This document shows positions 42,001 through 45,000 of a stretch of DNA of 64,000 bases, piece after piece (the stretch's first letter is position 1; every line of letters begins with the position of its first letter). This DNA is from Candidatus Poribacteria bacterium (GTDB lineage: Bacteria > Poribacteria > WGA-4E > PCPOR2b): assembly GCA_965208325.1 (NCBI GenBank), contig OZ242326.1, positions 1,120,001-1,184,000 on the forward strand. The letters run 5' to 3'. The position numbers are program-made.

Positions 42001-45000
42001 AAATGAAGATTGGTATAAGCGGACCTACGTCTATACTCACGGTTATGGCGCCGTGATGAGCCCCGTTAATGAGATTGATGACGGAAAACCCAAAATGTAT
42101 ATTGAGGACATCCCCGTCAATTATGCAGCCGAATGGACGGATAATCGGTTTAATGCCGAGCCAGGACCGCGTATATACTACGGAGAACTCACACCGCATT
42201 ACGCAATCGTCCACCCAGGGCGTCATGACAAACTGGAGTTTGATTACCCTGAACAAGGGCAGGGCTATGCCAAATATTCGTACACGGGACAGGGCGGGGT
42301 TCAACTCGCATCATTCATGCGCAGGTTCGTTTACATGCTGAAATTTAACAATGAGCTGAAATTCATCCTACCAGGAGAAATTACATCTACTAGTCGGGTG
42401 CTCTACCATCGAAATATACAAGAGCGTGTTCAAAAAATCGCACCGTTCTTACGATTCGATAAAGACCCCTATGCGGTTATTCACAACGGCAGGCTTATCT
42501 GGATGATCGACGCATACACGACAACGAGACGTTATCCGTATTCCGCCCCCATGCCGGATGTGGTGCGGGCAACTATTGCGGAACGGCAGGGAAGACGCGC
42601 GGCAAGCCGAATCGTCGGCGGCGAACAACCGTGGGATGGAAACTATATTCGAAACGCTGTAAAAGTGACTGTGGACGCCTACGATGGCACCGTGAATTTC
42701 TATTTGATGAAGCGCGAAAACGACCCCATTGTAGAGTGCTACAACCGTATTTTCCCCGATCTCTTCAAACCATTTGACGACATGCCTGAAGATCTCAAAA
42801 GCCACATCCGTTATCCAACCACGATGTTCCTTATTCAGGCTCGGATGTATCAGGATTATCACATGAAAGACCCAACGACCTTCTATGCACAAGAAGACCC
42901 CTGGGAAATCGGTAAAGAGGTTTACGACACGACTGAGCGCCCACGTAATCAGCCTGTGGCGCCGCCTAGCCCATTCCCAACCCAACAAGTGAGCCCACAG
43001 CCGCTCTTGACAAATGAGCAAGAAGTCGCACCCTATTACGTTGTAATAAAACTGCCGGGCGAAGAACAGGCGGAATTCATGCTCATGCTTCCTTTCACGC
43101 CGAAGAGCAAGTTAAATCTCACGGCTTGGCTAGCTGCAAGATGCGATTTGCCGCAATACGGCCAACTGCTAGTTTATCGCTTTCCAAAAGGAAAACTTGC
43201 CCCTGGACCAATGCAGGTCGAAAATTTTATCACCCAAAAACCTGAAATTTCCGAACAGATTAGCTTATGGAATAGGGAAGGATCGCGCGTGCTGCGTGGA
43301 AATTTGTTAATTATCCCCATGCACAACGCCCTCTTGTACGTAGAGCCAATCTACATTCAATCGGAGAATGAGGAATCGGCAATTCCTGAACTCCGTCGTG
43401 TCGTCATCGGCTATAAAGAAAACGTCGTCTGGGGCGCGAGTTTTGACGAAGCCTTGGTCAAGATGTTTGGGAGAGCGGTCGCGTCGAGTTCGCCGCCGTC
43501 AGGGCAACCGGAATCTGGCGTACAGAAAAAAGACCTACAAAACGTATCTGGCCGCGCCACAACGCAAACCTTAATTTCAAAGTTGGCGAGAGATGCAAAC
43601 CAAATCTATCAACAAGCGGTAGACGCGAGACGGACGGGAAATTGGGCTGAATACGGGCGTTTACAAAATCTGCTGGAACAAACATTGAAGCAGTTGGAAC
43701 AAAATGCTAATTAACCACTAACACCAAACATGGAGGTGACTCAAATGGGACTCGACTGGAAACCGCGTCATCGGGATTTAGTCATTGGCGGCATTCCTTG
43801 GCTTGCCCGTATCACGGATAAAGCGCGCGCCAAATTGAACGGGACTATCGGCGACTACATTTACCCGTGACCAATGGATCAATCAGTATTCCTGGAGGAA
43901 TACAAGCTCACAGGCGACGAGTTTATTGAAATTGTAAAAAATAATCCGTCAGACGATGACATGATTGCTGCGATTCGGTCGCTGGCGAAAGAACAATAAT
44001 TCGAATTGCTATCGTAACAAGTGCATTACTCATGTTGGAGATGTCTATAATTGAATCTGGCAGACTACCGAAATCAGATTGATCAACTTGACGATCAAAT
44101 CTTGGATCTCTTGCTTCAACGCGCGCGAATTGCCAAAAAGGTCGGAGACTTCAAAGAAAGCGCAAACACGGGGACTGTGTATGCGCCGCACCGTGAAAAG
44201 GAGATTCTGACTCGGTTGAAGGCGCGCAACAGGGATGGATTTCCACCCATTGCCCTCGAGAAAATTTACAAAGAGATTATTTCGGCTTGCCGATTTTTAG
44301 AAAAGCCATTGCGCATTGCATACCTCGGCCCCGTTGGTAGTTTTGGGCATGCCGCCAGCCTGCGCCATTTTGGCGGCTCGGCAAATTTCATTCCACAATC
44401 GCCTCAAACCGATATCTTCGTAGAGGTCGAAGCTAGCAGGGCCGATTACGGCGTGGTTGCAATCGAAAATTCCACATACGGTAGTGTGCGCGACGTTCTG
44501 GAAATGTTCCAGCACTCGCAGTTGCAAATTTGCGCCGAAATCTTCCTGCCAATCGATCACAACCTGCTCGCAAATTTTCCACTGAACGAAGTCGTTAAAG
44601 TTTACTCACATCCGCAACCCTTTGCGCAATGCAGAAAATGGCTTCATCAAAACTTGGAAGGTGTTCAACAAATTGAAGTCGCAAGCACGTCTGAGGCTGC
44701 GAGAATAGCCGCCGACGAACACGGTGCCGCGGCAATCGCTAGCAAGCTGGCAGCGGAAATCTATAATGTGCCTATATCCAACGCGTCAATAATGGACGAC
44801 CCAAGCAACACGACCCGCTTCCTTGTTATTGGATGGCACGCCGCGGAAAGAAGCGGAAACGACCGGACATCAATCCTTTTCGCAATTAAAGACAAAGTCG
44901 GTGCGCTCTATGAAGTCCTCAGAGTCTTGGAGCGCAACGGTATCAATATGAGCCGGATTGAATCCTTGCCTGCTCGAACAAAAGCTTGGGAATACGTATT

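Follow-up and report, generated by a model that had tools for sequence, protein, structure and literature searches.

The window analysed here is a stretch of 64,000 nucleotides from Candidatus Poribacteria bacterium (contig OZ242326.1), and one locus within it raises the question of whether an in-frame TGA separates two small genes or is translated within a single one. Translation table 11 splits the locus into 43730/43745..43870 and 43874..43999 (41 aa), and annotation pipelines call two 41-aa open reading frames. The preliminary description had taken these two calls to be one 84-aa DUF5069 protein with the TGA at codon 42, which both the reading frame and a Pfam match bear out. The locus (Table 1) is a single frame of 84 codons followed by a TAA (43997–43999), and the read-through protein matched Pfam PF16798 (DUF5069) with an E value of 5.7e-15 and 56.1 bits (cut-off 27). 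As residues 7–82 covered only profile positions 4–78 of 133, the protein represents a short form of PF16798. All orthologues begin with M[GAS]LDWKPR and the conserved start is therefore 43745 rather than 43730. From comparative sequence analysis we consider it highly probable that the locus encodes one DUF5069 protein whose UGA codon is decoded as selenocysteine (Sec) by the ordinary bacterial route. This reading is supported by covariation in a hairpin across a second phylum, near-fixed hairpin codons, loss of the hairpin in Cys forms, evolution of both halves as coding sequence, the use of TGA as a normal stop elsewhere in the window and the presence of the Sec machinery.

Table 1. Features of the DUF5069 locus, in window coordinates.
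Feature	Position	Strand	Description and basis
Shine-Dalgarno-like GGAGG	43732..43736	+	8 nt upstream of ATG 43745; from sequence
Coding sequence, DUF5069 short-form protein with predicted selenocysteine at residue 42	43745..43999	+	Translation with TGA as U; Pfam; 3omd; dN/dS
In-frame TGA, predicted U42, motif DYIYP-U-P	43868..43870	+	Same codon across loci; sits on the Cys column
Candidate SECIS hairpin	43886..43903	+	5′ arm 43886–43892 GUAUUCC, loop 43893–43896 UGGA, 3′ arm 43897–43903 GGAAUAC; MFE structure

If the UGA were instead a true stop, the locus would hold two small genes or a split, decaying gene, and the hairpin downstream would be regulatory or terminator-like, or merely the codons of an F-L-E-E peptide. 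Besides the two annotated frames, this would agree with seven N-terminal halves ending at profile position 41 among the 150 best representative clusters and with the ATG found one codon past the TGA in this genus. However, the same TGA is preserved in >250 genomes across two phyla, Poribacteria and Latescibacterota, and the Cys-form genes are single and uninterrupted. The first in-frame start after the TGA lay anywhere from 2 to 46 codons downstream, so that the restart codon is not conserved, and an invariant P-x-D following the TGA precedes most of these restart codons. Additionally, dN/dS was 0.060 upstream and 0.107 downstream of the TGA in Poribacteria, and 0.198 and 0.292 respectively in Latescibacterota; these values are rough because dS was saturated (about 1.2–1.4), and they indicate purifying selection on both halves of the gene in the same frame. 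A true stop is hardly tenable on this evidence.

The preliminary description had reported the gene from 169 of 176 Poribacteria genomes. The recount gave 170 of 176 at E <= 0.001, with two genomes (G113 and G123) matching only weakly. Among the 150 Poribacteria matches listed, 149 carried one in-frame TGA and G009 had none, in agreement with the earlier statement that all but one of about 150 best matches did so. The TGA was also said to be the same codon across loci, as it was in all 30 loci read. When 168 Latescibacterota genomes were searched, 119 had an orthologue-level match and 104 of these carried the Sec form, which would make Sec the majority state in these two uncultured phyla.

Alignment of the close short-form orthologues revealed Cys at column 42 in all 38 database sequences with a real residue at that position; 11 further orthologues show W, where the gene caller translated the TGA as Trp. 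The description of this Cys as nearly invariant is correct for these orthologues but not for the wider DUF5069 family: of 172 domain hits, 117 have C in this column and 29 have S, the latter mostly tandem-repeat paralogues. Of the 38 true-Cys orthologues, 31 have no other Cys, and the window protein, with the motif Y-P-U-P-x-D, has no second Cys. In this respect DUF5069 differs from the thioredoxin-fold CxxU/UxxC selenoproteins, where a second redox Cys lies two or three residues away. Compilation of 178 loci gave 154 with TGA at codon 42 and 24 Cys forms, in which this codon is TGC or TGT; none had TGG. The Sec/Cys label changed six times on a quick tree, and at least three of the changes were forced by well-supported branches.

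The hairpin downstream of the TGA has a 7 bp stem here, and its loop is separated from the UGA by 22 nt, compared with 19 nt in other genera. It had been placed 17–20 nt after the TGA, a distance that agrees with the GUUCC/AUUCC core if counting begins at the T (the AUUCC core begins at 43888, 17 nt after the A), whereas the stem itself starts 15 nt after the A here (base 43886) and 14 nt after it in other genera. Every one of the 154 TGA loci had the TGGA loop, and in 153 of them the stem was contiguous over 5 bp or more; one TGA locus (L171) had a mismatched closing pair. None of the 24 Cys loci combined the TGGA loop with a stem of that length. Two Cys forms (L134 and L137) kept the F-L-E-E peptide with different codons, showing that the peptide does not depend on the hairpin codons, which argues against the hairpin being a by-product of the peptide downstream of a true stop. 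The hairpin codons themselves were nearly fixed (n = 99: TTC 99, CTG 98, GAG 99 and GAA 98), while F, L and E were encoded by a free mixture of codons elsewhere in the gene (TTT 59/TTC 40 and GAA 39/GAG 38, for example). The hairpin is thus kept at synonymous sites, as first described, and the freeze is limited to the hairpin codons (98–99 of 99).

The published bSECIS model allows a loop of 3–9 nt, a stem of 4–16 bp and a UGA-loop distance of 16–37 nt, with G in the first two loop positions (PMC13188914, Fig. 2A). All of these ranges contain the DUF5069 hairpin, with its 4-nt loop (UGGA), stem of 5–7 bp and UGA-loop distance of 19–22 nt. As in E. coli fdhF and the consensus bSECIS, the stem-loop stands directly 3′ of the UGA, with a small apical loop that has G within its first two positions and another G after it, and a UGA-loop distance within 16–37 nt. 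It differs from these in being very short (5–7 bp, 4-nt loop) and in that, folded alone, it is weaker than the published limit of -7.5 kcal/mol, for which the review leaves the span of folding unspecified (PMC13188914). The 18-nt hairpin alone gave -6.6 kcal/mol here (median across loci -6.6, range -9.9 to -4.9), and folding of the 48 nt from the UGA gave -7.5 kcal/mol or lower in 152 of 154 loci. An Rfam search of 43600–44100 returned no matches at E <= 1. Loop and inner stem do not differ between the two phyla, and a SECIS role is predicted for them.

The preliminary description had held that almost no covariation was possible in this hairpin. That no longer applied once Latescibacterota were added, as compensatory changes became visible with the second phylum: the closing pair (21–34) was GC in 101, CG in 29, AU in one and GU in one of 132 distinct sequences from two clades, and unpaired in none. 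The adjacent pair 20–35 was UA in 63, GU in 24, AU in 16, GC in 10 and other in 19. Changes on both sides were found in three of the seven pairs (105 cells in total), and the four inner pairs showed no covariation, with G.U wobbles only. Across the alignment 91.5% of pairing cells were paired against 77.9% in shuffles, and the covariation score was 0.286, where shuffles gave 0.088 and slid partners no more than 0.131; neither observed value was reached in any of the 500 shuffles, a control that is blind to relatedness. RNAalifold recovered the same helix as the sole consensus structure. The covarying partners are the third base of the codon before F-L-E-E and the first base of the codon after it; this again speaks against a true stop followed by no more than F-L-E-E codons.

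The UGA might also be decoded otherwise than as Sec, either by hairpin-stimulated read-through with a near-cognate tRNA (inserting Trp, Cys or Arg) or because UGA is reassigned. The W that gene callers placed at the codon in 11 database entries and the shortness of the hairpin would be compatible with such decoding. On the other hand, TGA terminates 18 of the 41 long ORFs in the 64-kb window, from which it follows that the genetic code is not reassigned. The codon also falls exactly on the Cys column, as expected for Sec/Cys exchange, having changed to TGC/TGT at least three times and never to TGG among the 178 loci, and the hairpin obeys the bSECIS rules for loop, stem and spacing. Furthermore, the genome has a complete Sec system: tRNA-Sec (77.5 bits, cut-off 47), selA, selB and selD, which had been listed previously, were all found and all scored over curated cut-offs. 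Decoding as another amino acid is therefore very unlikely.

Across genomes, selA exceeded its cut-off in 163 of 176 Poribacteria and in five of five sampled Sec-form Latescibacterota. The machinery was also present in Cys-form genomes (f8 in Poribacteria and four of five in a further sample), so its presence does not distinguish the Sec form from the Cys form, and selA was rejected as a discriminator. In this genome selD itself contains an in-frame TGA. A small hairpin, GAUCC-GGG-GGAUC, lies 12 nt after that UGA; it was picked by eye, is not the ViennaRNA MFE choice and is anecdotal.

With decoding of the DUF5069 UGA as Sec, the hairpin within the coding sequence (5–7 bp, UGGA loop beginning 19–22 nt after the UGA) would serve as the SECIS element and, by analogy with the known mechanism, would bring SelB with its Sec-tRNA(Sec) to ribosomes that pause at this codon. 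The resulting selenol would take the place of the single conserved Cys in Y-x-Y-P-C-P-x-D.

PF16798 comprises about 1,080 representative clusters, and no NCBIfam model matched the read-through protein at E <= 1, as had been noted. Its relative of known structure is PDB 3omd (Leptospirillum rubarum, 145 aa), matched by sequence (3omd_A, E 2.8e-14) and by profile (E 2.4e-20). The AlphaFold model of the read-through protein (pLDDT 85.8) consists of a beta-hairpin and four helices, with U42 immediately N-terminal to helix 43–50. This model aligned with 3omd over 81 residues at Z 12.4, rmsd 1.8 and 38% identity (VIA-align), and with a TM of 0.80 and rmsd of 1.2 over 74 columns (Foldseek). Family and fold are thus common to both proteins, whereas 3omd has Cys (YNCPLDQ) at the position aligned with U42 and extends about 60 residues further at the C-terminus. 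Foldseek against pdb returned nothing but 3omd below E 0.001, and all chains other than 3omd were at Z <= 3.6 in a wide VIA-align search. No thioredoxin-fold chain stood out in either list and the fold searches found no related fold of known function. A protein atlas queried with a natural Cys homologue (P0020), excluding PF16798 clusters, gave no usable match.

Among 11 sampled Poribacteria loci the gene was upstream of pheA in 10 and downstream of UPF0182 in five; in two, both of one family (L031 and L060), it followed a glutaredoxin-fused pyridine nucleotide-disulfide oxidoreductase. In Latescibacterota it was downstream of RsmD or of an ORF of about 340 aa that has no Pfam family. No partner gene was common to both phyla among the sampled loci, and for this reason no function was inferred from context.

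The most likely role would be that of a one-Cys/one-Sec redox or chalcogen-transfer centre; it would need an outside thiol partner because the protein has no second Cys. In a genuine selenoprotein the Sec could also be a ligand of a metal or cofactor, as in formate dehydrogenase and NiFeSe hydrogenase, or a non-redox nucleophile. Such a function is suggested by the one Cys/Sec per domain without a CxxC-type partner, the fold that does not look thioredoxin-like, the tandem-repeat paralogues that carry Ser in or close to the column (29 of 172 domain hits) and the listing of 3omd in two chains. Yet no metal-binding motif was seen, nor were cofactor genes beside the gene in the sampled loci, known Sec sites are mostly redox-active (PMC13188914), and an oxidoreductase precedes the gene in one Poribacteria family. 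We regard a ligand or non-redox function as rather unlikely.

The 2026 review of prokaryotic selenoproteins lists 119 families in its Table 1 (PMC13188914). As the preliminary description had stated, PF16798/DUF5069 is not in that table, and no mention of either name was found in the searched literature. The table does include the single-Sec families DUF523 (PF04463), DUF3179 (PF11376), DUF1573 (PF07610) and DUF166, whose UGA likewise falls on a column of conserved Cys and is closely followed by a SECIS within the coding sequence, and which have Cys orthologues in other lineages; for all of them, as for DUF5069, selenoprotein status comes from comparative genomics only. DUF5069 differs from these in its domain (PF16798), in its YPUP motif without a second Cys and in having Sec as the majority form in two phyla. 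It is almost certainly a new selenoprotein family using the ordinary bacterial mechanism.

DUF5069 would thus add one family to the catalogue of 119, and would correct a systematic mis-annotation that affects >250 genomes in two phyla, where the gene appears as two 41-residue stubs or with Trp at the site. It also provides a very small natural candidate SECIS with clear covariation, a possible minimal recoding element, and marks the single Cys of DUF5069 as the likely active residue of a domain whose structure is solved (3omd) but unexplained. More tentatively, DUF5069 may represent a new class of one-Sec (or one-Cys) redox or chalcogen-transfer proteins with a non-thioredoxin fold, in which a Sec form with the same minimal UGGA-loop SECIS, dominant in both phyla, was either kept since before their split or exchanged between them; it would perhaps be one of the selenoproteins present most constantly in sponge symbionts and sediment bacteria.

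The two 41-amino-acid calls at 43745..43999, which the preliminary description had joined into one DUF5069 gene, were found to share a single frame of 84 codons with a TGA at codon 42; under table 11 only two short ORFs are obtained (43730/43745..43870 and 43874..43999). The 84-residue read-through product matched Pfam DUF5069 (PF16798; E 5.7e-15, 56.1 bits, cut-off 27) and, as the match covered residues 7-82, it spans the TGA position, which agreed with the joining. No NCBIfam model matched this product at E ≤ 1. The region is a real feature and, judged from the sequence comparisons described here, is very probably a genuine selenoprotein gene. 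The arrangement with an upstream UPF0182 gene recurs in several Poribacteria families.

Location of the DUF5069 gene parts and of related or neighbouring features (bare coordinates are those of the window)
Feature	Location	Strand	Remark
GGAGG before start	43732-43736	+	sequence
Start ATG	43745	+	sequence
In-frame TGA	43868-43870	+	same frame as ATG 43745
Putative SECIS hairpin	43886-43903	+	7 bp, loop UGGA; 15 bases after TGA; within minimum-free-energy fold of 43860-43930
Terminal TAA	43997-43999	+	same frame, beyond TGA
UPF0182 family membrane protein	40514-43714	+	1066 aa, directly upstream of DUF5069 gene
tRNA cluster	47600-47901	-	two tRNA-Met (CAT), one tRNA-Leu (TAA)
selD	G000:C1:4481278-4482201	-	own genome, outside window (L011)
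Glutaredoxin-fused pyridine nucleotide-disulfide oxidoreductase	L031:1765-2988	-	directly upstream, 148 nt, same strand
Glutaredoxin-fused pyridine nucleotide-disulfide oxidoreductase	L060:2753-3976	+	directly upstream, 148 nt, same strand
~340-aa ORF copies	L163:1746-2780, L146:1760-2791, L184:1742-2779, L179:1742-2866, L142:1746-2753	-	
~340-aa ORF copies	L137:2-1483, L194:54-1490, L135:2884-3948	+	
Tandem-repeat paralogue	G031:C1:2200789-2201859		L051, L054, L055
Tandem-repeat paralogue	G031:C1:4807985-4808593		L049, L052
Tandem-repeat paralogues, representative proteins			P0057, P0058, P0060, P0063

A DUF5069 match at E ≤ 0.001 was present in 170 of 176 Poribacteria genomes, a count that replaces the 169 given before. 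Among the 150 Poribacteria matches listed, 149 had a single in-frame TGA (accompanied by a TAG in one of them) and one genome, G009, had none, as had been described for all but one of about 150 best matches. The TGA was the same codon, in Y-x-Y-P-*-P, in all 30 loci first read, with protein conservation continuing past it; Poribacteria family f8 had TGC or TGT at this codon. A survey of 168 Latescibacterota genomes, with the Latescibacterota locus L134 as query, gave 122 matches at E ≤ 1e-8, of which 119 were at orthologue level (E ≤ 1e-16); 104 of these orthologues had one in-frame TGA and 15 had none. Following the fetching of 57 further loci of this phylum, the TGA was seen after Y-[PF], on the Cys column, in 48 of 48 TGA loci read. 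Over 178 loci, a set that includes some genomes fetched twice and excludes the paralogue loci L046-L055, L138 and L139, the site codon was TGA in 154, TGC in 16 and TGT in eight.

TGA does not serve as an ordinary sense codon in the window; among non-overlapping ORFs of 200 amino acids or more, 41 in all, 18 ended in TGA, 20 in TAA and three in TAG. The genome, one contig of 4.7 Mb, encoded all four components previously reported: tRNA-Sec (77.5 bits, cut-off 47), selA (588.7 bits) and selB (373.5 bits) adjoin near 2.04 Mb, and selD (376.8 bits) carries an in-frame TGA of its own, at the usual site. This selD is itself a selenoprotein gene (K-C-A-G-U-A-S-K); a small hairpin GAUCC-GGG-GGAUC, read by eye, starts 12 nt 3′ of its UGA and resembles that of the DUF5069 gene in its G-rich loop and in a stem topped by C-C/G-G. 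The tRNA-Leu (TAA) of the window's tRNA cluster gave a weak, sub-threshold match to the tRNA-Sec model (42.5 bits).

The hairpin 3′ of the TGA is a conserved structure tied to that codon. The loop TGGA was present in all 154 TGA loci and a stem of at least five contiguous pairs in 153, the exception (L171) having a mismatched closing pair, whereas none of 24 Cys loci combined this loop with such a stem. The hairpin seems to have decayed recently in some Cys forms: the outer pair was lost in L191, one inner pair was broken in L143, and L192 kept the stem with a loop UACA. In L134/L137, also Cys forms, F-L-E-E was still encoded, by other codons. In 99 distinct Poribacteria genes the hairpin codons were TTC (99), CTG (98), GAG (99) and GAA (98), while Phe, Leu and Glu codons elsewhere in the same genes varied freely (entropy 0.8-1.9 bits); conservation at synonymous sites, as proposed earlier, was thereby borne out.

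The preliminary description had held that almost no covariation was possible, and in the two-phylum set this proved incorrect. Pairing was analysed in alignment A2 (132 distinct 51-nt sequences) against 500 shuffles and slid-partner controls. Paired cells amounted to 91.5% compared to 77.9% when shuffled, and the covariation score was 0.286 compared to 0.088, with 0 of 500 shuffles as high in either case and slid partners reaching at most 0.131. The pair closing the invariant core was G-C in 101 sequences, C-G in 29, A-U in one and G-U in one, and was never unpaired; the next pair out was U-A (63), G-U (24), A-U (16) or G-C (10), with 19 unpaired. Variation in the four inner pairs was confined to G.U wobbles in 10 cells and a single mismatch, and RNAalifold predicted the hairpin helix and no other consensus structure. 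The shuffle control is blind to relatedness of the sequences; covariation is supported more strongly by the slid controls and by the clean flip between G-C and C-G.

The hairpin was compared with the bacterial SECIS limits in the legend of Fig. 2A of PMC13188914. Its loop of 4 nt (limit 3-9), stem of 5-7 bp (upper stem 4-16), UGGA loop (at least one G among loop positions 1 and 2) and UGA-to-loop distance of 19-22 nt (16-37) fall within them. The energy limit of ≤ -7.5 kcal/mol was reached in 152 of 154 loci when 48 nt from the UGA were folded; the 18-nt hairpin alone, at -6.6 kcal/mol here and as the median over loci, falls short of it. The predicted selenoprotein would use the ordinary bacterial recoding mechanism.

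Both halves of the gene are coding. dN/dS upstream and downstream of the TGA was 0.060 and 0.107 for Poribacteria and 0.198 and 0.292 for Latescibacterota, values that are rough because dS is high. They exclude saturated pairs, pairs with dS ≤ 0.05 and, owing to a one-codon indel, the seven loci from the genus of the window itself. The first start codon in frame after the TGA followed at a distance that ranged from 2 to 46 codons, which means that no separate second gene is conserved. In a quick maximum-likelihood tree of 159 distinct proteins with the Sec/Cys site masked as X, the two phyla separated (support 84) and the Sec/Cys label needed six changes, at least three of them forced by well-supported branches; the Cys loci L191 and L143 were nested in a 96%-supported group with the Sec loci L154 and L155. 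As selA was also found in genomes with the Cys form, whether Sec or Cys is used is not set by presence of the machinery.

A search of 5.8 billion proteins returned 55 homologues. In an alignment of the query and 49 of them, the Sec column showed C in 38 proteins and W in the other 11; each of the latter has F-L-E-E after the W, which was therefore taken to be a TGA read as Trp by the gene caller. The Sec-column Cys was the sole cysteine in 31 of the 38. The solved DUF5069 structure 3omd, from Leptospirillum rubarum (profile match E 2.4e-20), also has Cys at the position aligned with the TGA. At E ≤ 0.001 the wider family numbered 1,082 representative clusters, the best 150 of which gave 172 domain hits with C (117), S (29, mostly two- and three-repeat paralogues), W (1) or other residues (18) at this column; the remaining seven stopped exactly before it, as N-terminal stubs of Sec forms. 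The claim of a nearly invariant Cys thus stands for the close short-form orthologues and not for the wider family. Tandem-repeat paralogues, whose ORFs of 295-480 amino acids contain the DUF5069 domain two or three times, occurred in both phyla; at the Sec column or near it they mostly have Ser rather than Cys. Database stubs of 41 residues ending at the TGA were also seen (P0049, P0113, P0121, P0130, P0156, P0159, P0182), as were full-length versions with Trp at the Sec position (P0002-P0004, P0006, P0007, P0009, P0010, P0014, P0017, P0019, P0021, P0059), which indicate that some pipelines used a TGA=Trp code for these contigs.

Neither PF16798 nor DUF5069 is among the 119 families of Table 1 of PMC13188914, consistent with the absence from published lists noted before. 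A full-text literature search gave no mention of DUF5069, PF16798 or 'DUF 5069', and the listed matches for '3OMD' concerned an unrelated metabolite. The one paper joining 'Poribacteria' and 'selenoprotein' was, by title and abstract start, on NiFe hydrogenases, and among the matches listed for 'Latescibacter' and 'selenocysteine' none was on this family by title.

No gene-context partner was common to both phyla in the sampled loci. In Poribacteria, pheA was the downstream neighbour in 10 of the 11 loci sampled; the gene upstream was UPF0182 or, for one family, a glutaredoxin-fused pyridine nucleotide-disulfide oxidoreductase, and no other redox-related neighbour was seen. The Latescibacterota upstream neighbour was RsmD or a conserved ORF of ~340 amino acids without a Pfam family. 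This ORF, 130-170 nt upstream on the same strand, was found in many Latescibacterota loci (Sec and Cys forms) and one Chloroflexota locus; its copies were mutually homologous (blastp 1e-11 to 1e-76), with kinase-like motifs by eye and ABC1 (E 0.017) as the sole faint Pfam hint.

In the AlphaFold model (pLDDT 85.8) four helices follow a short beta-hairpin, and residue 42 lies just before helix 43-50. Only 3omd resembled it (Foldseek TM 0.80; VIA-align Z 12.4, next chain 3.6). The protein lacks a second cysteine and any CxxC-type motif. The Sec form in a second phylum, Latescibacterota, and the hairpin covariation are new over the preliminary description. Because Sec is generally found at catalytic redox sites (PMC13188914), DUF5069 would most likely provide a redox or chalcogen-transfer centre with a single selenol (or single thiol), served by an outside reductant.
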